Source: Candidatus Woesearchaeota archaeon CG10_big_fil_rev_8_21_14_0_10_32_9 (GTDB lineage Archaea > Nanobdellota > Nanobdellia > Woesearchaeales > 21-14-0-10-32-9). Taken from it: DNA of 39,941 nucleotides. The notes below the pieces were generated by a model. It had not been told where the DNA came from. It made no database searches and saw nothing but the letters and a program-made list of their open reading frames with translations. The stretch lies in contig PCYF01000029.1 of the NCBI GenBank assembly GCA_002762915.1, forward strand, positions 1 to 39,941, written 5' to 3'. Positions within the stretch are counted from its first letter, which is position 1, and every line of letters begins with the position of its first letter. The position numbers and the translations under genes were made by a program. Shown here piece after piece: positions 2 to 21,787 of this stretch.

Positions 2-646
2 GAGCAAGAGTATTTTGGTTGTCCTACTTGTGCAAATGCAAATGAAGATCCTGATAAAGACAGATATACAAATGCAGAAGAATGTAAAAGCGGAACTGAT
101 CCTCTTGATAAAAATAGCGTCCCTACTTTCGAAAAATTAAATATGGTTGCAATAATTTTATTAGCATTAGGCGGACTCTTATTTTTAGGAGGAATTGGAA
201 TTTTGATCTACTCTTACTTGAAAGATAAAGATTTTTCTCAAGTATTTTCTGGAAGTAATAGTTCATCAAAAGAATCTAAAGATTTGGAAGATTTTGCAAT
301 AGATGAAACTATGCCTAGACCAGAATCGATAGTAAATATACGAAAAAATCTAACTCCAGAAGAATTACAAATTAGAGAACAGAAAATGCAATCATCATCC
401 AAATCCAAGAAAATAGATAGAAAAAAATTATTTGAAGAGTTTGGTAACTCAACATCTTATAAATCTCCTGTGAAAGAAGCTCCAAGAGAAGTTAAAATAC
501 AAAAAGAAGCTACAAAAGAAAAACCAGATCCTATCATAAAAAAAGAATATGTTGAAGTAAACGCCGTCGGCAAAAATAAACCTGAAGAAGATATATTCAA
601 AAAATTAGCAAAGGTAAATAAAGCCAAATCTAAGTCTAAAAAGTAA
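2..646 (+). CDS. 5'-truncated surface protein with a TSP3-like Ca-binding repeat, a C-proximal TM helix and a charged cytoplasmic tail
   Basis: The frame of the 143..646 ORF is open back to base 2 (EQEYFGCPTCANANEDPDKDRYTNAEECKSGTDPLD...). D-x-D-x-D-x-x-T-N-x-E-E...GTDP is a bacterial TSP3-type repeat; hydrophobic helix IILLALGGLLFLGGIGILIY follows. Confidence 0.75.
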   Translation, partial: EQEYFGCPTCANANEDPDKDRYTNAEECKSGTDPLDKNSVPTFEKLNMVAIILLALGGLLFLGGIGILIYSYLKDKDFSQVFSGSNSSSKESKDLEDFAIDETMPRPESIVNIRKNLTPEELQIREQKMQSSSKSKKIDRKKLFEEFGNSTSYKSPVKEAPREVKIQKEATKEKPDPIIKKEYVEVNAVGKNKPEEDIFKKLAKVNKAKSKSKK

Positions 647-747: not shown

Positions 748-1221
748 ATGAAAAAAGCACAAACTCAACAAGTATTCATATACATAATGGTAATTTTAGT
801 TGTTGGAGCAATATTATTATTGGGCTACAAATCTATAAACGATATAATGAACAAGTCTTGCGCTGTGGATGAAGCAACATTCAAAAATGATTTTAGTCAA
901 TTATTAGAAAGAAATTCTGGCTATGGCGATATATATAGAACTCCGTTGGGAGTGCCTTGTGATGTTGACGCAATATGTTTTGTGAATAAAACAGTTACAA
1001 ATCCGGAAACAAAAATTACAAATCCTTTAATACTACAGTCATATCAAGCAGGAGCAAAAGACAACGTTTTTGTAGTAAAAGGGACAACAATAAAACCCTT
1101 ATTGACTAAAGATAATTTGGAAGTAAAAGATCAATTCTTTTGTGTAAATAATACTGCGGGTAAATTTAGCATAGTCTTAGAAGGAATTGGAAAAGGAATA
1201 GTTCAAGTAAGTAAATCTTGA
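748..1221 (+). CDS. Class III signal peptide (type IV pilin-like) protein
   Basis: MKKA|QTQQVFIYIMVILVVGAILLLG: basic leader, A|Q cleavage site, hydrophobic helix; four Cys in the head. Confidence 0.85.
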   Translation: MKKAQTQQVFIYIMVILVVGAILLLGYKSINDIMNKSCAVDEATFKNDFSQLLERNSGYGDIYRTPLGVPCDVDAICFVNKTVTNPETKITNPLILQSYQAGAKDNVFVVKGTTIKPLLTKDNLEVKDQFFCVNNTAGKFSIVLEGIGKGIVQVSKS

Positions 1222-1268
1222 ATTGAATTTATAAAAAGATAATAAGATAACAATTATAGGCAAAAAAG

Positions 1269-2321
1269 ATGCGCCCAAAAAAACAAGATAACAAAGGTCA
1301 ACTCCAAATAAGTTTCAATTGGATATTTGTCCTCATTGTGGGCGCAATAATATTATTATTCTTTATAACTTCTTTAACAAAAGAAACTGACTCTTCTAAA
1401 ACTCAACTTGCGCAAAAAGCGAGTGCAAGATTAGACGCAGTTTTCGCAGTAATACAACAAAATCCAGATTCAGTACAAATTCACGACGCACCAAATTATG
1501 AACTAGATTTTTACTGCACCGAAGAAGGACATTACTACGCTCTTAAAGACAGTTCAACAAAAAACTACCTAGAAAACGAACACATCTTCGCACCAGAAAC
1601 GATAGGCAAAGCAAAATTAGTAAGTTGGACGAAAACTTTTTCAGCACCATTTCCAGTATCTTCCATACTATATCTTTCTGATGAAAAAAATCAGTATGTT
1701 TTCATAACTGCAGATCCAAAAATTGAAAAACTCTATGAAGATTTTCCAGATAAATTTTCCAAAAAAAATGTAACGTCCAGCCAGGACATAATTGATGAAG
1801 GGTTTAGAAAATATATTATAATAACTGATGCATTGCCTGTAGCATCAAACATAAACAATGAAGTTAGAAAAAAAACTCAAGCAATAATAGTTGTATCTAG
1901 TGAGACTGCTTCTGATGTGTATGGATATGGAAACTTAAAATATTATGAGGAAGGATCATCTACATCAATAAATAAACCATATGTAGGTCAAGAACTTTTA
2001 TTTGCAGGAATCGTTTCCGGAAATTCAGAATTATATTCGTGCGGACTAAGTAAAGTTCTGGAAAAGACAAAAATAGTTGCGCAAACTAACTTACTAAGAA
2101 CACAAGCATTGAAAGACCAATACGATTTAACATACACCGGAAGATGTTCAACGTTCTACGGTTTAGTGACCCAAGGATATATTCAAAATCTCACAGAATC
2201 AGCAAGCAACTTTGAGACTTCAGATACAACTAAGAACTACAAGAAATTTTACGATTCAATGACTGATTTACAAAGAGTAAACGAAAATATATTGAGAAGT
2301 GATTGTACATTATTATACTGA
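1269..2321 (+). CDS. Class III signal peptide protein (minor pilin-like)
   Basis: NKG|QLQISFNWIFVLIVGAIILLFF; 350-aa ORF. Confidence 0.8.
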   Translation: MRPKKQDNKGQLQISFNWIFVLIVGAIILLFFITSLTKETDSSKTQLAQKASARLDAVFAVIQQNPDSVQIHDAPNYELDFYCTEEGHYYALKDSSTKNYLENEHIFAPETIGKAKLVSWTKTFSAPFPVSSILYLSDEKNQYVFITADPKIEKLYEDFPDKFSKKNVTSSQDIIDEGFRKYIIITDALPVASNINNEVRKKTQAIIVVSSETASDVYGYGNLKYYEEGSSTSINKPYVGQELLFAGIVSGNSELYSCGLSKVLEKTKIVAQTNLLRTQALKDQYDLTYTGRCSTFYGLVTQGYIQNLTESASNFETSDTTKNYKKFYDSMTDLQRVNENILRSDCTLLY

Positions 2322-2350
2322 ATCAGATTAAATAATATTTGAATAAATAA

Positions 2351-2863
2351 TTGAGATTGATTAAATTGAATATAAGTAAAAAAGGACAAATACAAAGCGG
2401 AGAAACCGTAACAGTAGTTATAATTCTAATAATTTTAATAGTGCTCGGAATAGTTTACGCAGCGAATTCAAAGATAGCGGGATTACAAAAAGACAACGAA
2501 AAACAAAAAGAAATAGATGGAATGAAAATCGCAGTACTTGCTGCAGGAATGGACGAATTAAAATGCTCAGTATATTCTGCTAAAGTAAGTACTTGTCTAG
2601 ATTTGTACAGACTTTCCGCATTCAGTGAAACTGTGAGTCAGAATTTATATTCCTCAAAAGAATATTATTTCAACACATTTAGAAACTCGAAGATAGAAGT
2701 AAACATAATAGTAAACGATACGTATGTAGAGAACATAGTGTTATACGACTTTAATAATTCTGAAAATAAATCCTCTTCTCCAATATTTTTCCCATTAACA
2801 GTATCGGATCCAGTTTCAAAGATAAATTATTTTTCAATAATGGAAGTAAGAACATACAACTAA
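2351..2863 (+). CDS. Class III signal peptide protein (minor pilin-like)
   Basis: KKG|QIQSGETVTVVIILIILIVLGIV; non-ATG (TTG) start, exact start uncertain. Confidence 0.8.
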   Translation: MRLIKLNISKKGQIQSGETVTVVIILIILIVLGIVYAANSKIAGLQKDNEKQKEIDGMKIAVLAAGMDELKCSVYSAKVSTCLDLYRLSAFSETVSQNLYSSKEYYFNTFRNSKIEVNIIVNDTYVENIVLYDFNNSENKSSSPIFFPLTVSDPVSKINYFSIMEVRTYN

Positions 2864-2880
2864 AATAACTAAAAACAAAA

Positions 2881-3378
2881 ATGAACGAAAAACAAATAAG
2901 AAAAAAAGGACAAATAGAAATAATGGGATTGCTTGTAATAGTAATACTCATAAGTTTAGTTATTTTCTTTTCTCTTTCATTTAACTTAAAAAATTCTGTA
3001 AATGAAGCACCAGTAAAACAAGATTTCAAAGATGCACAAACCACAGGAAATTTCGGAACTACTCTTTTGGAAACAACAACAAATTGTTCAAGATCTATCA
3101 GAGACCTTTTGAGCGACTGTGCATTTACACAAGAAGTAAATTGTGCAGGCCAAACTTCTTGCCAGCTTGCAAATAATTCAATAAACCGAATTTTAGAAGA
3201 GACGCTAGATAAGTGGAACTACAACTATACCTTACAAATCTCAAGTGATTCTGAACTTGTAACAGATTTTAACAAAACTGGCTGTGACCCTGCTAAAACT
3301 AAAAGTGTAACTACAGATATAACTCCCTTTGGAACAACCTTTAGTTCAATGAAATTGACTCTAAAAATCTGTAGATAA
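2881..3378 (+). CDS. Class III signal peptide protein (minor pilin-like)
   Basis: RKKG|QIEIMGLLVIVILISLVIFF; six Cys in the head. Confidence 0.85.
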   Translation: MNEKQIRKKGQIEIMGLLVIVILISLVIFFSLSFNLKNSVNEAPVKQDFKDAQTTGNFGTTLLETTTNCSRSIRDLLSDCAFTQEVNCAGQTSCQLANNSINRILEETLDKWNYNYTLQISSDSELVTDFNKTGCDPAKTKSVTTDITPFGTTFSSMKLTLKICR

Positions 3379-3393
3379 ATCCTTAAATTCTTA

Positions 3394-3407
3394 GAAAGAT
3401 TTATATA
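3394..3407 (+). promoter_or_regulatory. BRE/TATA promoter for the small Cys-rich pilins
   Basis: gaaaga-tttatata in the intergenic gap, followed by SD GAGGTG (3440-3445) and ATG 3452. Confidence 0.6.
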
Positions 3408-3451
3408 GGCCTTTCGATGATATAAGAAAATACTCTTAAGAGGTGTTACTG

Positions 3452-3712
3452 ATGAAAAAAGGAGAATTAAGCGTTAACATAATAATCGTGGCCGCAATAG
3501 CACTTATTATACTAGTTATTTTAGCAGTATTATTATTTAAAACAGGAAATGACCTGAGATTGGGAACTTCTTGTCAAGGATTACAAGGAATTTGTCAACC
3601 ACAAGAACTAGGATGCTCAGATTTAAATGATCCTGATGGCGGAATAACTTATATACAACACATGACTGCAAAATGTACATCAAATTCAGATGTTTGTTGT
3701 ATTAAACAATAA
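3452..3712 (+). CDS. Small pilin-like protein with six-Cys (C..C..C..C..CC) head
   Basis: MKKG|ELSVNIIIVAAIALIILVILAVLL; start moved to ATG 3452 because the GTG at 3443 lies inside the SD GAGGTG. Confidence 0.85.
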   Translation: MKKGELSVNIIIVAAIALIILVILAVLLFKTGNDLRLGTSCQGLQGICQPQELGCSDLNDPDGGITYIQHMTAKCTSNSDVCCIKQ

Positions 3713-3730
3713 ATTTAGAGGTGTAAACTC

Positions 3731-3982
3731 ATGAAGAAAGGAGAATTAAGCGTTAACATACTGATTGTAGCGGCTTTAGCCCTTTTAATTTTAATAATAC
3801 TTGTAGTGTTATTAGGAAAGAGCACAAAGAACCTAGATACAGGACTTGATTGTGTACAAAAAGGCGGAAAATGTGTTCCAAGTTTGACTTGTCCAGTAGG
3901 ACAAAATATTCCTGAAGGGGTATGTGCACAAAGCTCATCTGCAACATACGAGTGTTGTAAACTTCTAGCAACAGGAGAATAA
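3731..3982 (+). CDS. Small pilin-like protein with six-Cys head, tandem paralogue of 3452..3712
   Basis: MKKG|ELSVNILIVAALALL; first 30 nt differ from the 3452 gene at one base; SD GAGGTG at 3718-3723. Confidence 0.85.
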   Translation: MKKGELSVNILIVAALALLILIILVVLLGKSTKNLDTGLDCVQKGGKCVPSLTCPVGQNIPEGVCAQSSSATYECCKLLATGE

Positions 3983-3985
3983 ATA

Positions 3986-4738
3986 ATGAATAGAAGGGGA
4001 ATGGGTTGGGAAACAATACTTTCTATAACTATTTTAATTGCAATTATAGTAATAACATTCGGAATTCTTACGAATACTTATGCTGGTTGGAAACTAGTAA
4101 AAGACGACTGTAAAGGCACTTGTAGAATCTCTACTACTTGTGAAGTCGGAGAAACAAAAATGAGCGAAACTTGTTACAAGGCCGGAAAAAAACAGGATGG
4201 AATTTGCTGTTTATCTTTGGACGATCTTCAGAACAAGAATTCTTCAAATTCTACAAACTCTGCATCTAATAGTAATTCTAACGGCAATTCAAATAGCAAC
4301 TCTAATGGCAACTCAAATGGTGCCTCTAATTCTGGAGGAACAACTACGACTGGTCAAGGAACTCCAATTATAGAAATTAGAAAAGGTCAAGATGATGTAA
4401 CCAAAATACTTGGAGGAACAACTCAAACTTTAACAGCGGGTCAAACATACAATTACAGAGTATGGGCAGCTCAACAAGATCATCTGTATTGCACAATAAA
4501 AATGCTAAATTCTTCAAATTCTGAATTAACTCAAGTACAAGGAATGAGTCTTCAAATGATAGATGCACCATGTTCAGATGCTGCAAATTCAAATTCTAAA
4601 CAACAACAAATAGCTTTAACTCCTCAATTTATTTCTGGAGATCAAAACGTCTACAAAATGACTGTTGTTGTTCATAACTTGACTGGCGGAACTGTCGCTT
4701 CAACATCAGTTAACTTCCTGGTGCAACAAACCTCTTAA
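3986..4738 (+). CDS. Pilin-like protein: six-Cys domain, Asn/Ser/Gly linker and beta-rich C-terminal domain
   Basis: MNRRG|MGWETILSITILIAIIVITFG; CKGTC...C...C...GICC; NSNSNGNSNSNSNGNSNG linker. Confidence 0.8.
   Translation: MNRRGMGWETILSITILIAIIVITFGILTNTYAGWKLVKDDCKGTCRISTTCEVGETKMSETCYKAGKKQDGICCLSLDDLQNKNSSNSTNSASNSNSNGNSNSNSNGNSNGASNSGGTTTTGQGTPIIEIRKGQDDVTKILGGTTQTLTAGQTYNYRVWAAQQDHLYCTIKMLNSSNSELTQVQGMSLQMIDAPCSDAANSNSKQQQIALTPQFISGDQNVYKMTVVVHNLTGGTVASTSVNFLVQQTS
4237..4334 (+). repeat. Low-complexity Asn/Ser/Gly coding repeat (flexible linker)
   Basis: Encodes NSSNSTNSASNSNSNGNSNSNSNGNSNGASNS with varied synonymous codons. Confidence 0.7.
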
Positions 4739-4793
4739 ATTTCTTGAAATTGTATCCTGCTCTAATAAACCCAAGTTATTCTCAGAAGTTTAC

Positions 4794-4807
4794 AAAACTT
4801 TTATATA
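4794..4807 (+). promoter_or_regulatory. TATA promoter starting the second sub-operon of the pilin cluster
   Basis: aaaac-ttttatata about 30 nt before GAGGA + ATG 4839. Confidence 0.55.
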
Positions 4808-4838
4808 CTCGTGAAGACAAGAGGAACATAGAGGACAA

Positions 4839-4937
4839 ATGAGCATATCTTTAAAAGTACTGTCGGGATTGATCATAGCAGGAATTCTGATAACTTTACT
4901 TGTGCTAATAACTCTTAAGATGGTGGGAAATGTCTAA
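4839..4937 (+). CDS. Unannotated 32-aa single-TM micro-protein
   Basis: MSISLKVLSGLIIAGILITLLVLITLKMVGNV*; GAGGA SD-like at 4831; its stop overlaps the start of the 4930 gene. Confidence 0.6.
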   Translation: MSISLKVLSGLIIAGILITLLVLITLKMVGNV

Positions 4938-6378
4938 ATCTATTAATAAAAAAGGGGAATCAGCGTCTGCACCTGAAGTTCCTGTGGAATTACTACTTTG
5001 GATTGCAGGATTTCTAATAATCTTATCTGTAATATATATAATAATAAACTCAGGCTCTACCGCGGCTCAAGAATCAGTGTGTAGAGATAGTGTAATAATA
5101 AAAGGAAAAGCAAATCTGGTAATAAATAACATAGAAGTCTTTTCTAAAGCCACGCCTCTGATTTGCGAACCAATAGATAAAGGAAATCTTGATTCAGACA
5201 GAGAAACAATAAAAAGACAAATAGCTGACATGGCTGCTCAATGTTGGTGGATGTATGCTGAAGGAGGAATAACTGATCTTTTTGACAGTACTCAAAATCA
5301 AAAAGGATGCGGGGTATGTTATTTTTTCTCAATAAGAGATAATTTGGATGAAGGTCAAAAAAATAAAACATTCTTTCAAGAACCTGCGCGAAGTCCAAAG
5401 TTTATTTCTTCTCAAGAACTATACAACTACATGATGGGAAATAATTACAATGCAAAACTATTGTCAGGGGGAGGAACCATAAATTATGTAGGAGATATTT
5501 ATGAATTTGAACATGAAATTGTTTTGCCTCCATCTGTTCAAGAAGTAAGATTAAGTCAAATTCAATATATTTCTGGAGACTACTTAGAAGATTTTTCAGG
5601 AGTAATATCTCAAGAAACAAAAAACAAAGTAAGAGAAATAGGAAATCATTTACTGGAGAAAGATGCAGGAAGTCTTCTTGTTCTAGTTGCGGACAAATTT
5701 GATTCGCTTGACAAATCGAGAGCAAGAAGATTCATAGAAAACATAGGCCTTAACACGGAAAAAGACAAATATGATGCGCTTCTTGTTTTAATAGATTTAG
5801 ATTCAAGCAAAATACGAATACAAATGGGTGCGGACTTAGAAAAATATGTTAATGAATACGACCTAAGTAATATGATGAGCCAAGCATTTGCAGGAGAAAT
5901 AGTTTCAAATGAAGATCTAAATAATAGAATAGTAGAATTACTTAAAAAAATAGAGGATAAATTGGCTGGTGAATATGATTATTTAGCACATCTAGGTATT
6001 GACAGCAGATCATACTATGCATACATTTCAAATAGAGGAACAACTTTTTCAATTGTTGATCACATAGTTTCAGAGAAAAAATATGTTGTTGCATATATGA
6101 GTAGTAGCAGTCAAACAACTTGGTTAGACGGTATATTAGCAAATCCCGGATCAACTGCGGCGGCCACAGGAGTTGCAGCATTAAGTGCTGCAATAATTTA
6201 TTTTACGGGCGGAACAACGACAAAGTTTGTTCTAGCTGCGGATGTAATTGCATTTGGAAGTTCAGAAACTCTGGGAGATGGTTTAAATGCAATATTAGGA
6301 AATGTTAAAACAGATAGACCAAATTATATACTAGTAACAAGAGCATCAGAAGTATCAAGTAACTGCAAAGTTGATTAG
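4930..6378 (+). CDS. Class III signal peptide protein with internal TPM (DUF477) domain and C-terminal small-residue hydrophobic hairpin
   Basis: NKKG|ESASAPEVPVELLLWIAGFLII; DYLEDFSGVISQETK...LLVLVAD...DALLVLIDLDSSKIRIQMGADLE follows the TPM pattern. Confidence 0.75.
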   Translation: MSKSINKKGESASAPEVPVELLLWIAGFLIILSVIYIIINSGSTAAQESVCRDSVIIKGKANLVINNIEVFSKATPLICEPIDKGNLDSDRETIKRQIADMAAQCWWMYAEGGITDLFDSTQNQKGCGVCYFFSIRDNLDEGQKNKTFFQEPARSPKFISSQELYNYMMGNNYNAKLLSGGGTINYVGDIYEFEHEIVLPPSVQEVRLSQIQYISGDYLEDFSGVISQETKNKVREIGNHLLEKDAGSLLVLVADKFDSLDKSRARRFIENIGLNTEKDKYDALLVLIDLDSSKIRIQMGADLEKYVNEYDLSNMMSQAFAGEIVSNEDLNNRIVELLKKIEDKLAGEYDYLAHLGIDSRSYYAYISNRGTTFSIVDHIVSEKKYVVAYMSSSSQTTWLDGILANPGSTAAATGVAALSAAIIYFTGGTTTKFVLAADVIAFGSSETLGDGLNAILGNVKTDRPNYILVTRASEVSSNCKVD

Positions 6379-6444
6379 TTAACGACTCGCTGCGCATTTA
6401 AATTAAATTAAATAAAAAATAAAAGAAATGAATGAGGACAAAAA

Positions 6445-6567
6445 ATGGACGTACCAATGCTTGCAATTTGGATAATAATTATAGCAATAGTTTTGGTAAT
6501 AATGTTTGGATTCATATTTCCAAACATTGTGAAAGAAATGACAGGATACCTAGGCGTATTATTTTGA
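6445..6567 (+). CDS. Unannotated 40-aa single-TM micro-protein
   Basis: MDVPMLAIWIIIIAIVLVIMFGFIFPNIVKEMTGYLGVLF*; preceded by GAGGACAAA; ends 2 nt before ATG 6570. Confidence 0.65.
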   Translation: MDVPMLAIWIIIIAIVLVIMFGFIFPNIVKEMTGYLGVLF

Positions 6568-6569
6568 AA

Positions 6570-7475
6570 ATGAACAAAAAAGGAATATTCGGTTTAGTCT
6601 TAAGTGTAGTTGGAGCACTATTAGTTTTTTTTCTAATATATGCTGCATTTTTACGACCTGAAATATATACTGATATGTGGGATTCAATATCTAACACATT
6701 CTCTCTACCCGAACAAGATCCATATCCTTGGGAAATAAACATAAATGCACAACGAGCACAAGCTATGGAATCATTTCAAGATATTGTAAAACAATTCAAC
6801 AGAACTGCGGAAAATCGCGCAGCATATGTTCCAGAAGATATACCTATTAGTGATACGAAAGGAAATTGTTTCGGAGGCTTTTCAGCTCTGCCCACATCAT
6901 TTTTTGATAATAAATTTTCAATAAGAATAAGAAAAGAGTCTACTGGGATGTCTTTACAACTAATGGAAACAAGAGAACTTGCTGATCAAGATCCAACAAA
7001 AAATAAAGTTGTAACAAGATTGCCTGCGAGCTCAAAGTATTACATCTCAAATTATTCTCCGTGCGTAATATATGATGCGAGTGCAGAAATATTACTAGAC
7101 CGGGCAGTAGTCAATTCAGATCTAGAAGGAATAATAGATAAATTTGGATTTCAACAAAATGTTGAAGGAATAAATCTTTATGAACCTGACAAAATAACCT
7201 TTTTTCTCAAACCAGACGGAACTCAAGATTACACAGTTGATTTCAAACCCGGAGAAGATAGATACACTTATTATATTTTCAAAGTACTTGATGATCATGG
7301 AAACTCATTATGTTTAATTCCAACAAGTGATAATTCTGTCTGTAATGTTGAAAACAAAGCAATAACTGAAGGATGCCTTGATAAAGAATCATCTAATGGA
7401 AATTTGTACAGTGCATTAACCGGAGATTTAAAAGGAGCAATATGTAGAGGGTACTCCTCTGCAGATTTGATATGA
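6570..7475 (+). CDS. Class III signal peptide protein (minor pilin-like)
   Basis: MNKKG|IFGLVLSVVGALLVFFLIY; start reassigned from 6432 to 6570 to place the leader at the N-terminus. Confidence 0.8.
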   Translation: MNKKGIFGLVLSVVGALLVFFLIYAAFLRPEIYTDMWDSISNTFSLPEQDPYPWEININAQRAQAMESFQDIVKQFNRTAENRAAYVPEDIPISDTKGNCFGGFSALPTSFFDNKFSIRIRKESTGMSLQLMETRELADQDPTKNKVVTRLPASSKYYISNYSPCVIYDASAEILLDRAVVNSDLEGIIDKFGFQQNVEGINLYEPDKITFFLKPDGTQDYTVDFKPGEDRYTYYIFKVLDDHGNSLCLIPTSDNSVCNVENKAITEGCLDKESSNGNLYSALTGDLKGAICRGYSSADLI

Positions 7476-7543
7476 TCGAAAAGTATATGTGTATTTGTGA
7501 AAAAATAAAAATATGAAAATATGAAACTAATAAAGGTGATAAA

Positions 7544-7927
7544 ATGAATAAAAAAGGCGGAATGTGGAACATAGTGATTGGCGCATTTGCGGCGGTGCTT
7601 ATAATAATAATATATTTTACAATTGTGGGAAAAACAGACACAAACACAATAACTGATGCAAGTAACTCAATAACTGTAAATTCTGATGGAGATGAATTCA
7701 ACAACATGATAGATCCATGTCCGTGCGGTTCTCCTCCAAATCAAAATAATAAAAAAATATCTGTAGATGGTTACTTGTATTGCCAATCAGGATTTAGCGA
7801 AGAACAATGCAATAAAATAATAACTGAACAGAAGTTTGCAGGATTTGAAGTAAAAGAATATCGTGGAGAAAAATTATGCATTTACAAAAAGACGTCCGAA
7901 ATGAATAGTAAATGTCCTACAGTTTAA
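7544..7927 (+). CDS. Class III signal peptide protein, Cys-rich, with one TSP3-like motif
   Basis: MNKKG|GMWNIVIGAFAAVLIIII; NSDGDEFNNMIDPCPC; SD AGGTGA upstream. Confidence 0.8.
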   Translation: MNKKGGMWNIVIGAFAAVLIIIIYFTIVGKTDTNTITDASNSITVNSDGDEFNNMIDPCPCGSPPNQNNKKISVDGYLYCQSGFSEEQCNKIITEQKFAGFEVKEYRGEKLCIYKKTSEMNSKCPTV

Positions 7928-7952
7928 GTGTCAAGAAATTTAGAGAATTACT

Positions 7953-8813
7953 ATGAGTAAAATTAATGAAAGAGGAAGAGTCAAAATAATTGGAAATAAA
8001 AGAGGAGGGTTGTACAATTCTTTAACTTCTCTAATTATATTTGGAATAATGTTGGCGGCAACCATTTTCTTGATAATAAACATATTTTCACAGAACAACA
8101 ACCAAAGCGATGAAAGTTTAAAATTACTAAAAACTACAATAGAAACTGTTTCTGAAACATCACTAAGTGAAAAATTCATAAGTATAGATATAGATAAAGA
8201 AACCGCGCTAATAGGCTTTAATCCTGGAGCTGATGCAAATTTTCAATACACTTTTCAGGGATTTACTCCCGAAGAAAAAAATGTATTCTTCATGAAAGGA
8301 TTCTTTATGGATAAACCTGACAAATGCAACATAGACAAAGCTTGCCTGTGCTTGTGCCGAGGATACAATTATATGACTAAAGCAGATTATCCTCAAATGA
8401 CTGTCCAAGATGCACACATAGTTTGTGAAAAAGAACTAGTATGTACAAGTCTTGAAGATGTGGAATTTAGAGATATGAAAATGCCAGATGTGTTTGATGA
8501 TAATATGGGCAGAACAGCAAATCTTCCTGATGGTGTGACTGAGAGAAAAGATCACTACTGGACAAATGGATTTATTATACTAAGATCTGATAAAATAGAC
8601 AACACTAAATATGAACAGTACATAATATCTACAACTACGAATGGTGGAAGAGGTGGAGGCGTTTCTCAAGTAAAAGTAAGTCATCCTCTTGTTGTTTCAG
8701 GATATATGGACTATTCTCCGTTACGATTCATAGATGCAGTAGTATACTCTGATGCTAACGGAAAAATAGGTGTTTGTTTAAAATCAAATTGTAATATTAC
8801 ATTATTTACATAA
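7953..8813 (+). CDS. Class III signal peptide protein, Cys-rich
   Basis: NKRG|GLYNSLTSLIIFGIMLAATIFLII; PDKC...ACLCLC motif. Confidence 0.75.
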   Translation: MSKINERGRVKIIGNKRGGLYNSLTSLIIFGIMLAATIFLIINIFSQNNNQSDESLKLLKTTIETVSETSLSEKFISIDIDKETALIGFNPGADANFQYTFQGFTPEEKNVFFMKGFFMDKPDKCNIDKACLCLCRGYNYMTKADYPQMTVQDAHIVCEKELVCTSLEDVEFRDMKMPDVFDDNMGRTANLPDGVTERKDHYWTNGFIILRSDKIDNTKYEQYIISTTTNGGRGGGVSQVKVSHPLVVSGYMDYSPLRFIDAVVYSDANGKIGVCLKSNCNITLFT

Positions 8814-8852
8814 GAAATATTCACATAAAAAATAAAAGAAAGTGGGGAAAGT

Positions 8853-9755
8853 ATGCGTTTAAACAAAAAAGGATCTGCAGATGTAGACAACACTTTACAG
8901 AAGAATCTTTTCATATTTGCAGAATTGGCTGTTTCAATGATTATCTTGATTGCTGCAGGATCAGTTGCAATAAATAAAATGCAAGATGCAGAAAATATGG
9001 TTTTAGCTAAAGATGTAGCATTTCTAATAGAGACAATAAGCGCATCACCTTACAAGTTATACTATTCTTATCCTGTTAATTTGGAAACAAAAACAATAAA
9101 TGTGGATGAAGGAAGTGTAACAATCTCCTCGACAAAAAATACGGTGACTGAAAAATTCATGCCCATGAGAGGAGTAAGTGTTCCCAGCTCAAAAATAAGA
9201 AACACTGTATCCGTAATGTTCTTTTTCTACGAAAACATGTTAACAATAGGAGAAGGTGGCGCATCGAGTGATGAAGAATATTGCAATTCACTTCCAATTC
9301 CTAACAAAGAAGATTTAGTTTTTGCAATAACATATTCTAGTGGTTCTACTGAAAAATACTTAGAAAAAATAAAAGAAACAATGGTTCTTTCAAATAAACC
9401 TGAAGATCATTTCTTTATAGGTGAAAAAAATAATGCGGACTTCATAATAAATTTAAAATTTAATGAAAATGCAGAAAATAATAATTTAACCATAAAGTAT
9501 GATGTGACAAAGACAGGATTGTCAAGAATAGTTTGTTATCTTAACTCAGGATTTGAAGGAAATCAAAACTTCAATGAGAAAGAAAAAATTAATGATGCTC
9601 AACAAGATAAAACCCTGGCTATGTTATTTGGATCTTTGGATAAATTAAAAGAACAAATGAATCAATCAGAACCTATAGATCCACAAGTGTACACTGAAAT
9701 GGAAAAATATGGTATAATAATATCTGATGCTCTAAAAAAAGGTGTTAAAAATTGA
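8853..9755 (+). CDS. Class III signal peptide protein; C-terminal half possibly a degenerate Amidase_3-like fold
   Basis: NKKG|SADVDNTLQKNLFIFAELAVSMIILIAAG; the domain call is by eye only. Confidence 0.7.
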   Translation: MRLNKKGSADVDNTLQKNLFIFAELAVSMIILIAAGSVAINKMQDAENMVLAKDVAFLIETISASPYKLYYSYPVNLETKTINVDEGSVTISSTKNTVTEKFMPMRGVSVPSSKIRNTVSVMFFFYENMLTIGEGGASSDEEYCNSLPIPNKEDLVFAITYSSGSTEKYLEKIKETMVLSNKPEDHFFIGEKNNADFIINLKFNENAENNNLTIKYDVTKTGLSRIVCYLNSGFEGNQNFNEKEKINDAQQDKTLAMLFGSLDKLKEQMNQSEPIDPQVYTEMEKYGIIISDALKKGVKN

Positions 9756-10258
9756 ACAGAAAAAACAAATTCAAACACAAACTAAGTAAAAAAGGAGGAG
9801 ATACTGAAACAGATACTCAATTCTTCTGGACGTTCTTTGTAGTTCCAGCAATCATAATATTTTTAGCATTATCTATATATGTAATAAGTCTTCTATTAAC
9901 TAGCAAAGTCACAATTATAGAGGGGGTTAAAGACTCCGCATATGAATCAAGAGTTCTTGGTTCTCCAAATTGTTTTACGTATCAGGATGAAATAAGTGGA
10001 AGAACATACAATGGCTACATTGATTTAAAAAAATTTAATGACGAAAGATTTAGAGAATGTTTTAGTACAAAAGAAACTGGACAAAGAGGAATAATTTTGC
10101 TTTTAAATTATGAAAATGATGAAATAGAGTTGACTACTGATAATATAAAATCAAAAATCAGCTCAACACAAAAAACAACAAAACTTCTACCAGTTCACGT
10201 CGTAGAAAAAAATGGAACAATTGCTCAAGGATTGATAAGTATAATTTATTGGTATTAA
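9752..10258 (+). CDS. Class III signal peptide protein (minor pilin-like)
   Basis: SKKG|GDTETDTQFFWTFFVVPAIIIFLAL; TTG start overlapping the upstream TGA. Confidence 0.75.
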   Translation: MNRKNKFKHKLSKKGGDTETDTQFFWTFFVVPAIIIFLALSIYVISLLLTSKVTIIEGVKDSAYESRVLGSPNCFTYQDEISGRTYNGYIDLKKFNDERFRECFSTKETGQRGIILLLNYENDEIELTTDNIKSKISSTQKTTKLLPVHVVEKNGTIAQGLISIIYWY

Positions 10259-10259
10259 T

Positions 10260-10808
10260 ATGAAACAAGAACTAAAGATTGTTGGAAAAAAAGGAACAAT
10301 GGATGATTTTGGGGAATTATTAGTTGGAGGAATCATGATAACTGTTCTTTTAGTTGTATTAATAATCTTAATAGCAGCTAATACCGATCAAAAGAAAATT
10401 CAAACAGATTTCGATTTGAAAATGCAAGAAACTGTGAAAATTACTAGACTTATGTTGGATCAAGAAACAGAAACCGGAGAAAAAATATTTGAGATAATAA
10501 TCAAACAAGAAGATACTAGAGACTACAAGCCTGCGGGTATTGCACTCAACAAAACACTTGACAAACTTTATGGAGCATCAAAAGGAACTTGGGTCTTAAT
10601 AATAAAGGATCCAAAAATAGAATATTGGGAATACTTAAAGAGTGATCCTTCTGTAAAAATTCCCAATGGTTTAACAAATCTTCCGGGAGTAAGTATTCCT
10701 GATGGAAATGGAGATATAATTAATGTAACAATAAAAAAAATAGACAAAACTGATGATTTTTTGCAGAACGTAAATTGGAATTTAGCGCTAAGCAGAGGAA
10801 TTCAATAA
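10260..10808 (+). CDS. Class III signal peptide protein (minor pilin-like)
   Basis: GKKG|TMDDFGELLVGGIMITVLLVVLII; starts 1 nt after the upstream stop. Confidence 0.75.
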   Translation: MKQELKIVGKKGTMDDFGELLVGGIMITVLLVVLIILIAANTDQKKIQTDFDLKMQETVKITRLMLDQETETGEKIFEIIIKQEDTRDYKPAGIALNKTLDKLYGASKGTWVLIIKDPKIEYWEYLKSDPSVKIPNGLTNLPGVSIPDGNGDIINVTIKKIDKTDDFLQNVNWNLALSRGIQ

Positions 10809-10843
10809 ACTGATAATAAATATTTGGTAGTCAAAACTTGAAA

Positions 10844-13800
10844 ATGAAAAAAATAATAAACGGAAAAAAAGGTGCAATATTCTTCTACTTCTTAGCTTTA
10901 ATACTATTATTTATGATCGGATACTCAATAATATTCATGAATAAAAATGTCTCTAATCTTGATTACGTTGGTTCCTCTCAAAAAAAAATAATTGATGCCT
11001 ATGAGCTAGCAGAAAGATCTATGCTATATTTAGATATAAATGTAAAACTATCTGCGGATAGAGCAATAATAACTTCAAATCAAAAAGGAGGATTTACGGC
11101 CGGACAAGATGAAGATACAAAAAAAGAATATCCTTGCGGAATAATAGTATATCCTCTTATTAATGATGGACAAGAATTAGACAAATGTGCTCCTTCATAT
11201 TATGAATCGCTAAAAGAAGAATTCCTAAATGAATTCAAAAAAGCAACTTACGTATATCCAGAATTGCCTTTGTATTCCTACTCTTATGATGCGCTAGTAA
11301 GCAAAAATTCTGAAGATTTGCAATTAAAAATATTTTCCATATCGCCATTGAAAATTCCAATTTACTCTGAAACTGCGGCATACTATGATCCTCAACAAAT
11401 AGCACAAAAAACAGCATCTAATATACTTCCAGGAACATTTGTGGACACGCCCGAAGGATACAAAAAAACATCAGGATATTCAAGTTTATCTAGAGGATCA
11501 TCAGTTATTGATACGATAGTTATACATTATACTGCAGGATCGACAGTGCAATCCGCACTTGATACACTATCAAGTGCAGGTTTGAGTTATCACTTTATTA
11601 TCGATAAAGATGGAACAATATATCAGTTAGTTGAAGAAGATGAATCCGCACAACATGCAGGTTGTTATAGGAACGGTGTTAAAAAGAAAGGCTGTATAGA
11701 TGGTTACAACTCAAGATCAATAGGAATAAGTTTTGTCAACTTAGGATGGGATACTAAAAATAAAAATGTTCAATGCACTGACATTGCTGAAAAGTGTTGG
11801 GAAGTATATACGGACCAACAAATGAATGCTCTGGCAAAATTACTGATAGAAATACAAGAAAGACAAATTCAAAAAAGAAATAATCTAGAATTAAATGATG
11901 CAACAATAATATATCATTCAGACATAAGTCCGGATAAGCAAGATCCTGGTCCGGCGTTCGATAAACAAAAATTATTGAATTTGATACAAACACTAAAACA
12001 AAACGCAGGACAACCTACTTCTGCACCTAATTTAGCCACAAATACTAATACTCCGCAAACACAATCAACCAATTTTATAAAAGATCAAAAAGTAACAGAA
12101 CAAGAAGCAGCACAATTGCACGCATCAGTTAATTACGAGGACATAAAAAATAAAAAACCAACTTTCTCTGTTGTGCCAACTGTTTATTATACTGCAGTTT
12201 ATGAAGATACACAAAATTGGTGTTCTCCAACAAAAGGAGATTGTTTTACAAGCAAGTCGCAAATAGGCGATTTTTACAAAGACGCTTCCTCAAAACAATC
12301 ATGTTTGGCTGCGGGCGGAGGATTCTGTTGTATTAATAGAGCAGATAGAGGATTTTATGAGGACACACTATGTCAAGGGAGCGGAATATATGCAACCCAA
12401 CTTTACAAATACAATACTATTGAACCAACTCAAACCGCGAGCAAATCAATTAAGGGATACGTTCGTGGCCAAACTTCGTCAGGAACAGATCCTATAAGAC
12501 AATGGACTGTAGCTGTAAACACTGATCCTAAATCAAATTGTTATGTTCCAGAGAATACACTAATGTATGTATACTTTGGAGAAGGAAATTCTTGGAATGG
12601 AGTTTACAGAGCAGAAGATACAGGAGCTGCTTTTACAGGACAATGTAAAATGGATTTCTATGGTGGTGTTGGAGTTACACAATTAAATGATGCCATGAAA
12701 TATGTAGATCCTGCTAAATCTGCCCAAGTATTTTTCCTTGATCAAAATCTAAATTATGTTCCTTCAGGAGCTTTATCATCTAACGGAGTGTCTGCACAAA
12801 CAGGAGAAATAACAGTTCCATATACCTTTACATATTTGTTAAAAGGCGCATCAGAAATATATGATTTAACTCAAAAATTTGTAAAAGATACAATTTCTGA
12901 ATGTTCAAAAAAATCATATGATCAAAAACAAGAATGTCTAGATGATCAAATAAATGCAACTAAAACAACCAACTTAAAGGTTGATAGACTTTGTTTAGAA
13001 CCAGGCTTTTTACCAGCAATAAATTTAACTGATTTAGAAAAAACATATACTTCTTGGAATACAATAATTAAAGTTGCTGGACAAATAGATAGAAAAGATC
13101 CTCAGCAAACAACTACTACAACCTCAACAAGTAAGAAAGAAGGAGCAGTTGAATTTACAACGTCAGGCTATTTATATTTAACACAAATTCCGTCTAATGA
13201 GCCTATAGTTCTGAAATTCTTAGATGAAGATGCGTTGCCAGAAAACTTTAACTGGGCAGAATTTATTGCGCAAGATTACGTAGAATTTTCATATGTAAGA
13301 GTATTAAGTGTAGATAAAACAAAAAATGAAATAACAGTAAAAGCGTTTGATCCTCTAAAAGATAAGGACAAACAAGCAGAAGATATAAAGATAAATCCAG
13401 GGTATTTCCTTCGAGAAATAGTTAAAAGTACAGCTCTTGATCTTGCAGAGTGTTCAACATCAAAACAAGATGAATGTAAATGTAATATAACAATATGGGG
13501 CTTGTTTGAGAATGTGAGTTTTGCTGATGGCAAAATGTCTTTCACAAACATGAGTGAAGGTAATTATGTAGAATTATCCTTAAAGATATATGAACAAAAT
13601 GAAACGATATCAAACAACATTACAAATTCAAGTAATGTGGCGTTCACAAAGAAGCTGAAATATACTGAATTAAGATTTAAGAAAAATAAAGATGGAAGTT
13701 TCACATATATCAACGAAGATTATGAACCAAATCTTGCAACGTGTGTTCCAGAGAATAGATATTATTTGATGTGTATGGCTGAAAATAAAACATCTGCAAA

Positions 13801-13870
13801 GTCTGCAACTGCTCAAGCAGGAGTCGCAGTAATAGACGACGAAGCACTAAGATTTTCAATCAAAATATAA
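10844..13870 (+). CDS. Large prepilin-like protein with N-acetylmuramoyl-L-alanine amidase (Amidase_2) and 3D (MltA-like) domains
   Basis: GKKG|AIFFYFLALILLFMIG. Amidase motifs IDTIVIHYTAG, SYHFIIDKDGTIYQ, AQHAG, NSRSIGI, TDQQMNAL, IIYHSDI, KQDPG (~11480-11990). 3D motifs TVYYT, QTSSGT, TVAVNTDP, YRAEDTGAAFTGQCKMDFYGG (~12160-12740). ATG 10844 preferred over TTG 10838. Confidence 0.9.
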   Translation: MKKIINGKKGAIFFYFLALILLFMIGYSIIFMNKNVSNLDYVGSSQKKIIDAYELAERSMLYLDINVKLSADRAIITSNQKGGFTAGQDEDTKKEYPCGIIVYPLINDGQELDKCAPSYYESLKEEFLNEFKKATYVYPELPLYSYSYDALVSKNSEDLQLKIFSISPLKIPIYSETAAYYDPQQIAQKTASNILPGTFVDTPEGYKKTSGYSSLSRGSSVIDTIVIHYTAGSTVQSALDTLSSAGLSYHFIIDKDGTIYQLVEEDESAQHAGCYRNGVKKKGCIDGYNSRSIGISFVNLGWDTKNKNVQCTDIAEKCWEVYTDQQMNALAKLLIEIQERQIQKRNNLELNDATIIYHSDISPDKQDPGPAFDKQKLLNLIQTLKQNAGQPTSAPNLATNTNTPQTQSTNFIKDQKVTEQEAAQLHASVNYEDIKNKKPTFSVVPTVYYTAVYEDTQNWCSPTKGDCFTSKSQIGDFYKDASSKQSCLAAGGGFCCINRADRGFYEDTLCQGSGIYATQLYKYNTIEPTQTASKSIKGYVRGQTSSGTDPIRQWTVAVNTDPKSNCYVPENTLMYVYFGEGNSWNGVYRAEDTGAAFTGQCKMDFYGGVGVTQLNDAMKYVDPAKSAQVFFLDQNLNYVPSGALSSNGVSAQTGEITVPYTFTYLLKGASEIYDLTQKFVKDTISECSKKSYDQKQECLDDQINATKTTNLKVDRLCLEPGFLPAINLTDLEKTYTSWNTIIKVAGQIDRKDPQQTTTTTSTSKKEGAVEFTTSGYLYLTQIPSNEPIVLKFLDEDALPENFNWAEFIAQDYVEFSYVRVLSVDKTKNEITVKAFDPLKDKDKQAEDIKINPGYFLREIVKSTALDLAECSTSKQDECKCNITIWGLFENVSFADGKMSFTNMSEGNYVELSLKIYEQNETISNNITNSSNVAFTKKLKYTELRFKKNKDGSFTYINEDYEPNLATCVPENRYYLMCMAENKTSAKSATAQAGVAVIDDEALRFSIKI

Positions 13871-20176: not shown

Positions 20177-21787
20177 ATGATTGTTAAGAAGGGTCAGGCT
20201 GCGTTGGAGTTTCTTACGACGTATGGTTGGGCGTTTCTTGTGGTTCTTGTTATGATTGGTGCTTTATCCTCTTTCGGTGTTTTCGGAAATGTCGGTGTTG
20301 ATAAATGTGTTTCTGAACAAGGCTTTACTTGCGAATCTTCTTTGATTACTGATACAACTCAGAAATTTAAGTTTAAGAATACTTTAGGAGAGGATGTTAG
20401 TATTTCTAATGCTACAATGATTGTTAAATCTACTGGAGAAGTCGTTGATTGTAATGTTCCTTCAGAAAGTATTAATGATGGAAATAGTTTCGAAATTAGT
20501 TGTGAAGGAGATGGTCTTAGTATAGGTAAGCGTGAAAACCTAGATGTTAGATTTAATTATTATCCTGCTACAAGTAGTGCTCAGTATTCAAAGTCTGTTT
20601 ATGCTGATATTAGTGATAGTGTTGAAAGTTTAGAAGAGTTTGAGAATGTAGGAGGAGTCTCTGATCTTGGAGGTAGTGGTGAAAGTGCGGGTTCTCAGTC
20701 GGTTTTGGTTTTTGATACGCAGTATGGATCAAGTGTTGATCTAAGCTTAACTGGTAGTGGCGAGTTAGTTGTTGATTGGGGTGATGGTTCTACAAGTAAC
20801 AGAAGCGGTTCCGGCACTTTAAGTCACATTTATTCAGAAGTACAACAATATGTTGTTACAATAAATGGAGACTTATCAGATATGGGCTTCAGAATAACAA
20901 GTGATATTAGTTCGTTGGTTGAGATAAGAGACTGGCCTAGAACTATAACTGATATGTCAAGTATGTTTGTAGCAGGTTCATTTAATTATGCAGACAATCT
21001 TGTAAGTGTTCCAAATTATCTGCCACCAAATGTAACAACCTTAAAAAGAATGTTTTTCGGCGCATCCACGTTTAATCAAGATTTATCAGCCTGGAATACA
21101 AACAAGGTAACAGATATGACTCTCATGTTTTACGATGCTTCTAATTTCAATGGCGATGTTTCTACGTGGGATACAAGTAATGTGAATACTATAGAAGAAA
21201 TGTTTAGATTTGCTTCTAGTTTTAATCAGGATATTTCTAGTTGGAATGTTGGAAATGTAACAAATATGAAAGCAGTATTTCAAGGAGCGTCTAGTTTTAA
21301 TCAGGATATTAGTTCTTGGGATACAAGTAAAGTAACAAATTTTGCAAGTATGTTCGCAGGAACTAGCTTTAATCAAAATATAGGATCATGGAATATAGGT
21401 AGCGCTACATCTATAGGTGCTATGTTTACAGGTAATTCTGTTTTCAATCAAGATATTTCTAATTGGAACACGGAAAATGTGACAATAATGTACTACTTGT
21501 TTGATGGTGCTTCTAGTTTTAATCAGGATATTAGTTCTTGGGATACAAGTAAAGTAACAACACTTTCAGAAATGTTCGATGGTGCTTCTAGTTTTAATCA
21601 GGATATTTCTAGTTGGAATGTTGGAAATGTAACAAATATGGGTGCCATGTTTAGATCAGCGTCTACTTTTAATCAAGACTTGTCCAATTGGTGTGTAATA
21701 AAAATATCAAGCAAACCTAACTATTTTGATACAAGTGCATCTTCATGGACGCTAAGCAGACCAATATGGGGAACATGTTCATCATAA
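20177..21787 (+). CDS. Type IV pilin-like protein with DUF285/BspA-like ~25-aa surface repeats
   Basis: KKG|QAALEFLTTYGWAFLVVLVMIGAL (canonical, E at +5); VDWGDG PKD-like element; repeated MFxxASSFNQDISSWDTSKVT. Confidence 0.9.
   Translation: MIVKKGQAALEFLTTYGWAFLVVLVMIGALSSFGVFGNVGVDKCVSEQGFTCESSLITDTTQKFKFKNTLGEDVSISNATMIVKSTGEVVDCNVPSESINDGNSFEISCEGDGLSIGKRENLDVRFNYYPATSSAQYSKSVYADISDSVESLEEFENVGGVSDLGGSGESAGSQSVLVFDTQYGSSVDLSLTGSGELVVDWGDGSTSNRSGSGTLSHIYSEVQQYVVTINGDLSDMGFRITSDISSLVEIRDWPRTITDMSSMFVAGSFNYADNLVSVPNYLPPNVTTLKRMFFGASTFNQDLSAWNTNKVTDMTLMFYDASNFNGDVSTWDTSNVNTIEEMFRFASSFNQDISSWNVGNVTNMKAVFQGASSFNQDISSWDTSKVTNFASMFAGTSFNQNIGSWNIGSATSIGAMFTGNSVFNQDISNWNTENVTIMYYLFDGASSFNQDISSWDTSKVTTLSEMFDGASSFNQDISSWNVGNVTNMGAMFRSASTFNQDLSNWCVIKISSKPNYFDTSASSWTLSRPIWGTCSS
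21040..21695 (+). repeat. Tandem ~75-nt coding repeats (DUF285-like), about nine units
   Basis: Exact duplicates: 58 nt at 21211-21268 and 21583-21640; 49 nt at 21290-21338 and 21512-21560. Confidence 0.85.

Follow-up and report, generated by a model that had tools for sequence, protein, structure and literature searches.

Why should an archaeon that has no murein of its own encode, at the end of a long run of pilin-like genes, a protein with a murein-cutting domain? The question is raised by a 39,941-nt stretch of DNA (the window; contig PCYF01000029.1, here C20) from Candidatus Woesearchaeota archaeon CG10_big_fil_rev_8_21_14_0_10_32_9 (assembly GCA_002762915.1), whose genome comprises 773,833 bases in 66 contigs and is estimated to be 86% complete. 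Fifteen consecutive open reading frames (ORFs), g01 to g15, lie on the + strand at 748–13870, and a check of the ORF positions confirmed this layout as it had been read from the sequence alone (the sequence-only reading). A conserved pilin-like array is indeed coupled to a murein hydrolase that is exchangeable, the g15 protein; the coupling is widespread within the order Woesearchaeales, to which we keep the claim. As to function, we favor, with a probability of about 0.58, the view that the array encodes the subunits of one surface assembly related to type IV filaments (T4F), with g15 as a pilin-like subunit that bears a murein hydrolase and acts on the bacteria it touches; the coupling is observed, whereas we infer that a pilus is built and that bacteria are attacked.

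The N-termini are the most uniform feature of the array. All 15 proteins begin, as first noticed from the sequence, with a basic leader ending in K/R-G/A (MKKA, ..NKG, ..KKG in nine cases, MNRRG, ..NKRG and similar), after which comes a hydrophobic stretch of 12 residues or more; in 12 of the 15 the gap between leader and helix is 0–7 residues. A simple regular expression for such N-termini retrieves 55 of the 1711 ORFs of at least 60 aa in the genome, 13 of them in the array. At the background rate of 0.025 the probability of finding at least 13 in 15 is 1.3e-19, and the clustering of the motif is far from chance. Leader and helix are kept in 128 of 137 array orthologues, and of the 150 best library relatives of g15 (out of 2193), 134 have a K/R-G/A leader under a looser pattern. 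Conservation extends past the putative cleavage site: Q13 (+1) is invariant and E18 (+6) nearly so in the alignment of g03, and Q11 (+1), E13 (+3) and G16 are invariant in that of g04 (46 sequences).

A second, more canonical and highly uniform leader (KKGQAALEFLTTYGWAFL-like) is carried by at least 13 other proteins of the genome. Two are encoded in the window, at 20177-21787 (DUF285/PARCEL repeats) and 22599-24089 (beta-helix), and others on contigs C7, C14, C17, C33, C49, C51, C61 and C62. These leaders are fused to large adhesin-like domains and mark a pilin-like family distinct from the array. On C33, a 393-aa ORF with an SLT match (C33:11990-13171; E 1.9e-5, 23.6 bits) sits a few kb downstream of two pilin-like proteins with the canonical leader (C33:4920-8586).

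The array has been kept together, with its hydrolase, over a considerable range of relatives. Of 61 related genomes, 33 have a match to g15, and within its own family the figure is 14 of 17. The order g01 to g15 is preserved in 15 loci of close relatives, often followed by a gene for RPA; many of these loci encode g15 in two pieces, an N-part (leader, N-domain and amidase) and a C-part (3D-like). The array recurs in 14 of 16 loci taken from other families of the order; the remaining two (L046, L047) hold unrelated amidase proteins. When a g02 profile was run over one-genome-per-species contigs, a relative of g02 was found to be encoded in 239 of 311 candidate stretches. The 80 loci kept from this set are metagenome-assembled genomes (MAGs) of Candidatus Woesearchaeota, Nanoarchaeota or Nanoarchaeia, many automated bins being labelled otherwise, and their common order is up, g01, g02, g03, g04, (g05/06)n, g08, ..., g11, g12, g13, (g14), g15, RPA, where "up" is the upstream neighbor and the small g05/g06-type subunit occurs in one to six tandem copies. 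The synteny of hydrolase and array, which the sequence-only reading had made a touchstone, thus holds in the close-relative, the other-family and the MAG loci. In a sample of the phylum, g02 is present in 270 of 301 genomes (a count that includes two unpublished ones), all of the same order or class. We take the array to be an operon passed down vertically, in an archaeon of the Woesearchaeota type (Nanoarchaeota/DPANN). A chimeric contig, the danger raised when the locus was first read, is ruled out by the even GC content of the whole window (0.28–0.35) and by the recurrence of the same order and neighbors (RPA, ABC-2 permease) in relatives, closed single-contig genomes among them.

The Amidase_2 domain of g15 is matched at residues 223–372 with an E value of 2.6e-26 and 92.9 bits, against a cut-off of 26, and it aligns to AmpDh2 (4bj4, E 2.9e-12) and AmiD (2bh7, E 1.2e-6). 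In the alignment with AmpDh2, H230, H360 and D369 fall on their counterparts, and K367 is also present; we take the former to be the Zn ligands and the latter to be the catalytic lysine of Amidase_2. The position aligned to the Glu of the AmpDh2 sequence GIEI is occupied by Ser; this Glu is catalytic in enzymes of the AmpD type, and the T7-lysozyme and PGRP types do without it. The domain looks intact, and the protein is predicted to be an N-acetylmuramoyl-L-alanine amidase. The 3D domain that had been read beside the amidase stands less firmly: in g15 itself it scores E 0.01 and 16.5 bits, below the cut-off of 23.8. Because the homologous region lies above the cut-off in five orthologues (L019, 38.1 bits; the C-part of L024, 31.2; the C-part of L018, 30.0; L007, 26.6; L021, 25.2), residues 569–613 of g15 are probably a diverged 3D domain.

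Across the g15 family only the first ~200 residues are conserved, and the rest varies. We scanned singly, for Pfam domains, 38 terminal proteins that have the g15 N-domain. A hydrolase domain above cut-off is found in 20 of them (Amidase_2 in nine, SLT in five, M23 in three, M15/VanY in three and Peptidase_C39_2 in one, a single protein holding both Amidase_2 and SLT), and five others have sub-threshold matches only (VanY, NlpC/P60, 3D). As additional domains, 3D occurs in three of the 38 and GDSL/SGNH above cut-off in one (L007), with a weaker match in L019. The tally leaves out the separate C-part genes (L024, L018, L020), a g11-like GDSL protein (L043:5189-6505), the non-array amidases of L046 and L047 and a weak non-terminal match (L099:1204-2829). 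On a larger scale, when a library of 1.84 billion was searched with an N-domain profile, 2193 representative proteins matched at E<=0.001, and in all of the 150 best-listed matches the match begins at the N-terminus. Pfam families were counted at E<=1e-4 in 118 of these best 150 (77 of the 118 being at least 300 aa long), with overlapping counts: Peptidase_M23 in 11; VanY, Peptidase_M15 and SLT in nine each; Amidase_2 in seven; fn3 in five; NlpC/P60, Peptidase_M15_4, 3D, Lysozyme_like and Phage_lysozyme2 in two each; and Peptidase_M15_3, Peptidase_C39_2 and Glucosaminidase in one each. The enzymatic families of this sample are cell-wall hydrolases without exception. Jointly, the hydrolase families recovered target the glycan, the amide and the peptide bonds of murein, and the only non-murein families on terminal proteins are fn3 and, in two relatives (L007, L019), an SGNH/GDSL esterase. 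Variation of the lytic module among relatives, suspected at the outset, is therefore seen for amidase, M23, SLT, 3D, NlpC/P60 and M15 types. The esterase matches have E values of 9e-16 in L007 (genome G004) and 3e-4 in L019, and of 2e-15 in the g11-like protein of L043; such domains could act as O-acetyl-peptidoglycan esterases.

Structure predictions bear on both ends of the array. Single-chain models made with AlphaFold2 cover two of the 15 proteins, g03 and the N-domain of g15. The model of g03 (52 sequences; predicted local distance difference test, pLDDT, 90.7) has a continuous helix at residues 11–65, two short helices and a four-stranded antiparallel sheet (113–168), and in this predicted form it has a classical pilin architecture. 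Modelling of subunit complexes, proposed with the sequence-only reading, supports docking of the g15 N-domain on g14 and g13: the three together score 0.79 (runs of 0.75, 0.81 and 0.79) and none of three controls exceeds 0.00; the score falls to 0.00 when g14 is replaced. Of 80 solved complexes 58 reach the mark used for this score, as do 2 of 110 mismatched pairs; this calibration holds only roughly here because our own alignments and three chains were used. The runs share at least 64% of their contacts, with a partner pLDDT of at least 59. The predicted contacts (g15 45–75, 132–142 and 179–186; g14 49–81 and 140–153; g13 56–66, 82 and 87) place the interface in extracellular, post-membrane helices, outside the membrane helices. 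A Protein Atlas search returned only unnamed Nanobdellota clusters. The Cys-rich mini-domain of g05/g06 gives weak profile matches to tick carboxypeptidase inhibitor (E 0.011), gallinacin-11 (E 0.1) and defensin-like peptides (E 0.2–0.5); the beta-defensin-like matches are non-significant and may reflect the cysteine pattern only.

Genes that could process and assemble such subunits are present in the genome, at other places. No T2SSE, T2SSF or A24 peptidase match was obtained on C20, in agreement with the sequence-only reading, which had seen no assembly ATPase, TadC-like platform or peptidase in the window and had advised looking for them elsewhere. An A24 prepilin peptidase lies on contig C19, a 485-aa T2SSE ATPase with two T2SSF platform genes on C52, and a second T2SSE ATPase of ~765–770 aa on C65 (C65:458-2770, − strand). 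T2SSF is found in 54 of the 61 related genomes and g02 in 55, the latter by its profile A1. Five genomes have the array and a weak T2SSF match or none; all five encode an A24 peptidase, and four a ~760-aa T2SSE ATPase above cut-off, the fifth (G044) having only a 528-aa frame that, at 23.7 bits, falls below it. In G042, G045 and G048 the ~760-aa ATPase is followed by a conserved polytopic membrane protein of ~750 aa, which matches no Pfam family and is present in 299 of 301 sampled genomes. The pair, found on C65 and at homologous loci (L134, L135, L136), is flanked by three small proteins with two to three transmembrane segments and two small soluble proteins. Aligned with hhalign to the TadC pair of C52, the ~750-aa protein gives a probability of 15.6% (E 0.0017). 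We consider ATPase and membrane protein a near-universal, undescribed-looking T4F-like pair in the class.

Taken as one T4F-related assembly, the array could work as follows. Some 15 proteins with class-III-signal-like, type-IV-pilin-like N-termini would form a short pilus or pseudopilus, or a membrane-rooted stalk, in which g01–g04 would be the conserved core set, the small repeated g05/g06 the candidate major subunit and g13-g14-g15 a subcomplex. The leaders may be cleaved by the peptidase encoded on C19, and assembly may be driven by the ATPase and platform loci on C52 or C65. Within g15, a constant N-terminal domain for anchoring and assembly would be joined to exchangeable murein hydrolase modules, here the amidase and the 3D/MltA-like region; the protein would be physically built into the assembly and would act on living bacteria. 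With no murein in the archaeon itself, the enzyme would work on the walls of the bacteria touched, and attachment, host access or feeding would be the likely purpose. The system would be T4F-like and functionalised with lytic enzymes. A stronger version of this proposal, a contact-dependent murein-breaching T4F machine with a pilin–hydrolase fusion at its tip or in its stalk and swappable warheads matched to the wall chemistry of the host, we put forward tentatively, being more inclined to doubt it than to assert it.

Several findings weigh against the proposal that the array builds a T4F-related assembly acting on bacteria. No array protein matches a curated pilin or class III signal model, either in Pfam (scanned at E<=0.1 for g01–g09 and g15 and at E<=0.01 for g10–g14) or in NCBIfam (E<=1, nine of the 15 proteins, with no family for any of the nine). 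Profile searches of the PDB with g02, g03, g04 and g05/06 returned no pilin, and Foldseek found no PDB match at E<=0.001 for the g03 model or for that of the g15 N-domain, in which (pLDDT 81.8) the helix is broken (H10–40, H46–82). The gap between leader and helix is longer, polar and atypical of class III signals in g08 (11 residues), g12 (17) and g13 (17). The 112 array loci inspected, which together span 1.68 Mb, contain no homologue of an ATPase, platform or peptidase, and the co-occurrence of array and motor genes in the same genomes is uninformative because both are near-universal in the group. No domain could be recognised in 13 of the 38 terminal proteins, two of these 13 being truncated. 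In three same-genus relatives (L019, L021 and L022, from genomes G002, G001 and G005) the amidase has lost at least one Zn-ligand position (His) and may be a binding-only module there; their terminal proteins still match the 3D domain, below cut-off in L022. Finally, in G154, the only genome of another order examined, just g01–g04 are present at the array locus (L139), so that the core appears older than the hydrolase end. At L139 the pairs g01-g02 and g03-g04 are kept and are parted by a secreted-looking protein of 1019 aa.

Some of these observations would sit well with a surface-anchored ectoenzyme complex that makes no filament, its leaders serving as signal anchors, cleaved or not, that tether it to the archaeal membrane, much as in the bindosome idea for Sulfolobus, and its hydrolases digesting free murein debris for amino sugars and peptides instead of breaching live cells. 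The missing matches to curated models and solved pilins, the lack of motor genes near the 112 loci and the long polar spacers all point that way; the contacts predicted for g13, g14 and the g15 N-domain are between ectodomains and need no filament, and class III signals are known on non-structural archaeal proteins (PMC13705601). Yet a plain anchor would have no use for a strict G/A at −1 and Q/E at +1, the small g05/06 is tandemly repeated as major pilins are, and the long continuous N-terminal helix predicted for g03 is typical of pilins. On balance we think such a complex unlikely, while giving it real weight. In having numerous pilin-like genes and a single small subunit that is repeated, the array resembles sets of pseudopilins. 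A secretion pseudopilus, a piston like that of the type II secretion system (T2SS), might push the hydrolase, and perhaps also "up", through the surface layer (S-layer), the hydrolase then being a free bacteriolytic enzyme; secreted archaeal murein hydrolases that kill bacteria are documented (PMC12352652). Against such a piston, the hydrolase shares leader and helix with the other subunits and has, besides, a conserved N-domain predicted to dock on g14, which argues that it stays attached and is not cargo, and the Pfam scan of the array revealed no secretin-like or other conduit gene; we find this scheme improbable. Bacterial murein hydrolases usually serve autolysis or phage lysis, and g15 might by analogy remodel a wall polymer of the archaeon itself or belong to a phage or mobile lysis cassette. 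Neither origin fits what was found: Mur_ligase_M and PBP transpeptidase gave no match in the genome (not found rather than absent, at 86% completeness), and the array, whose window is even in GC content, is not mobile, since many families and closed genomes have it at a fixed chromosomal site beside RPA. We consider own-wall remodelling or a lysis cassette very improbable indeed.

What stands of the original proposal, a pilus or pseudopilus that delivers lysis to bacteria, is accordingly only part of it. Conservation of the leader motif, synteny, variation of the modules, the T4F genes of the genome and the models of g03 and of the g13-g14-g15 complex speak for it; the want of a pilin-family or solved-pilin match, and of a motor in the 112 loci, speaks against it. 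The individual features are placed in Table 1.

Table 1. Array genes, domains of g15 and the upstream neighbor, with positions in the window
Feature	Position	Strand	Remark
up, C-terminal end of large surface protein with C-terminal membrane anchor	2..646	+	conserved upstream neighbor of array
g01, 157 aa, leader MKKA/QTQQ + helix	748..1221	+	orthologues E 1e-22 to 1e-49; no Pfam/NCBIfam family
g02, 350 aa, leader ..NKG/QLQISFNW + helix	1269..2321	+	most widely traceable array member
g03, 170 aa, leader ..KKG/QIQSGE	2351..2863	+	modelled: 55-residue N-terminal helix + 4-stranded sheet
g04, 165 aa, leader ..KKG/QIEIMG	2881..3378	+	ORF and leader scan
g05, 89 aa, KKG/ELSVN + ~25-residue helix + small Cys-rich domain	3443..3712	+	short, pilin-like
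g06, 83 aa, g05 paralogue	3731..3982	+	ORF and orthologues
g07, 250 aa, leader MNRRG/MGWE	3986..4738	+	ORF, orthologues, leader scan
g08, 482 aa, leader ..KKG, 11-residue spacer, TPM domain	4930..6378	+	orthologues E 1e-38 to 1e-83
g09, ~301 aa, MNKKG/IFGL	6570..7475	+	internal ATG start
g10, 127 aa, MNKKG/GMWN	7544..7927	+	ORF, orthologues, leader scan
g11, 286 aa, ..NKRG/GLYN	7953..8813	+	ORF, orthologues, leader scan
g12, 300 aa, MRLNKKG, 17-residue polar spacer ahead of helix	8853..9755	+	ORF, leader scan
g13, 168 aa, 4-nt overlap with g12	9752..10258	+	conserved across order
g14, 182 aa, begins 1 nt past g13	10260..10808	+	predicted docking partner of g15 N-domain
g15, 1010 aa: leader + helix, conserved N-domain, Amidase_2, 3D-like region, C-terminal region	10838..13870	+	
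g15 N-domain, aa 1-205, membrane helix + helical/beta domain	10838..11452	+	constant part fused to varying hydrolases in relatives
g15 Amidase_2 domain, aa 223-372	11504..11953	+	
g15 3D-like (MltA-type) stretch, aa 569-613	12542..12676	+	below cut-off

The suggestion that several of the genes are translationally coupled is fair for three junctions, g12/g13 (4-nt overlap), g13/g14 (1-nt gap) and g06/g07 (3-nt gap); the remaining intergenic gaps measure 17–191 nt. The longest ORF of g09 starts at 6432, and the leader motif and the orthologues fit only the ATG at 6570. Apart from g15, Pfam recognises one array protein, g08, with TPM_phosphatase at residues 220–324 (E 4.9e-10); the other 13 match no family above cut-off. 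Downstream of the array are genes for an archaeal RPA-like protein (OB fold, DUF2240, Rep_fac-A_C) and an ABC-2 exporter. Homologues of "up" are found directly 5' of g01 in most loci and reach 1000–3100 aa in relatives. In the three that were scanned (L019:16583-19930, L021:15539-18844, L027:14863-18123) there is a TSP3_bac repeat, with E values from 9.5e-5 to 8.4e-10, the match in L019 (22.6 bits) lying under the 25-bit cut-off. It is conceivable that the "up" surface protein belongs to the same apparatus, as part of an S-layer or as an adhesin.

The Woesearchaeota-type archaea are among the commonest uncultured archaea. The array suggests that they physically attack or feed on bacteria, and an apparatus with a murein hydrolase as a subunit offers a concrete and testable mechanism for contact between archaeon and bacterium. 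Should the murein-breaching proposal be true, much of a very abundant uncultured DPANN lineage would consist of cross-domain episymbionts or predators of bacteria, a reach that follows from the conservation of array and hydrolase across the Woesearchaeales and of the g01–g04 core in other orders of the class. Warhead type would then predict host type, and the locus could be used as a marker for host prediction by comparing warhead type with the wall chemistry of co-occurring bacteria. The unannotated families g01–g14 and the N-domain, with its 2193 representative clusters, can be given a working role, and the array presents a natural scaffold-plus-cassette design for lytic enzymes. In the literature that we searched, g15 would be the first pilin-like murein hydrolase; its coupling to the array is the new-looking part.

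How does the array compare with systems already described? In bacteria, the tip complexes of minor pilins with PilY1 and the tips of T2SS pseudopili combine an adjacent pilin-like set with a large functional protein, and the array resembles them in its four adjacent pilin-like proteins (g01–g04) and large terminal functional protein. PilY1 is an adhesin and neither a pilin nor a hydrolase, and homology of the array to GspH-K or FimU/PilVWX was not detected when the g03 model was compared with the PDB by Foldseek or in the PDB profile searches. With AmpD, AmiD and AmpDh2 the g15 protein has the domain and the metal-ligand positions in common, whereas its amidase stands behind a pilin-like anchor domain and ahead of a 3D-like region, in an archaeon. 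Like archaeal T4F clusters, the array has Q at +1 in several members, and Q at this position is typical of EppA-type substrates. As in those clusters, the genome holds a dedicated A24-type peptidase and an ATPase with platform, and the 11-gene Epd pilus cluster of Methanococcus, with its minor pilins, is likewise long, co-oriented and furnished with class-III-like leaders (PMC13705601). Unlike them, the array matches no known archaeal pilin family, its motor genes are unlinked and its last subunit has murein hydrolase domains. The same 2026 survey of archaeal T4F finds them scarce in DPANN and describes "functionalised" T4F that carry binding proteins; in the text drawn on, the words "peptidoglycan", "amidase" and "hydrolase" do not occur. 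Its example of the Sulfolobus bindosome, with class III signal peptides on substrate-binding proteins, is akin to g15 as a functional, non-structural protein with a pilin-like N-terminus, presumably for mounting on a T4F-type scaffold (PMC13705601). A class III-type leader on a functional protein and small pilin-like neighbors are shared with the bindosome, but the cargo here is cell-wall-lytic rather than solute-binding, no uptake transporter of that type is linked, an adjacent ATPase/membrane pair is found in 0 of 112 loci and the lineage is another.

Murein-active enzymes have been met before in these archaea. Large SLT/GH23 "murein-like lytic transglycosylase" proteins are reported from Woesearchaeota and Pacearchaeota, which are inferred to bind or degrade bacterial walls (PMC8204110; PMC9723730). 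These were single large proteins identified by domain or CAZy search; in the text of the two papers used here, "pili" and "pilin" appear zero times, with no array, conserved N-domain or cassette swapping. A survey of archaeal murein hydrolases considered Sec and Tat signals (PMC12352652), and in Omnitrophota giant predation genes lie beside T2SS/T4P-like (T4P, type IV pilus) genes and small genes with class III signals (bioRxiv 10.1101/2023.11.21.568195). We found no published pilin-like array that ends in a pilin-like murein hydrolase in the main texts; the supplements (PMC13705601, S10 Fig and tables; PMC8204110, module 98, fam00969) may list some of the families. The nearest functional analogue would seem to be the Kil apparatus of Myxococcus xanthus, a Tad-like system needed for contact-dependent killing of prey, with local degradation of peptidoglycan at the contact (PMC8460266). 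There, as here, the pilin genes lie apart from the motor genes. Kil is bacterial, and in the account drawn on its hydrolase is neither named nor known as a pilin, whereas the hydrolase of the Woesearchaeales array is itself pilin-like.

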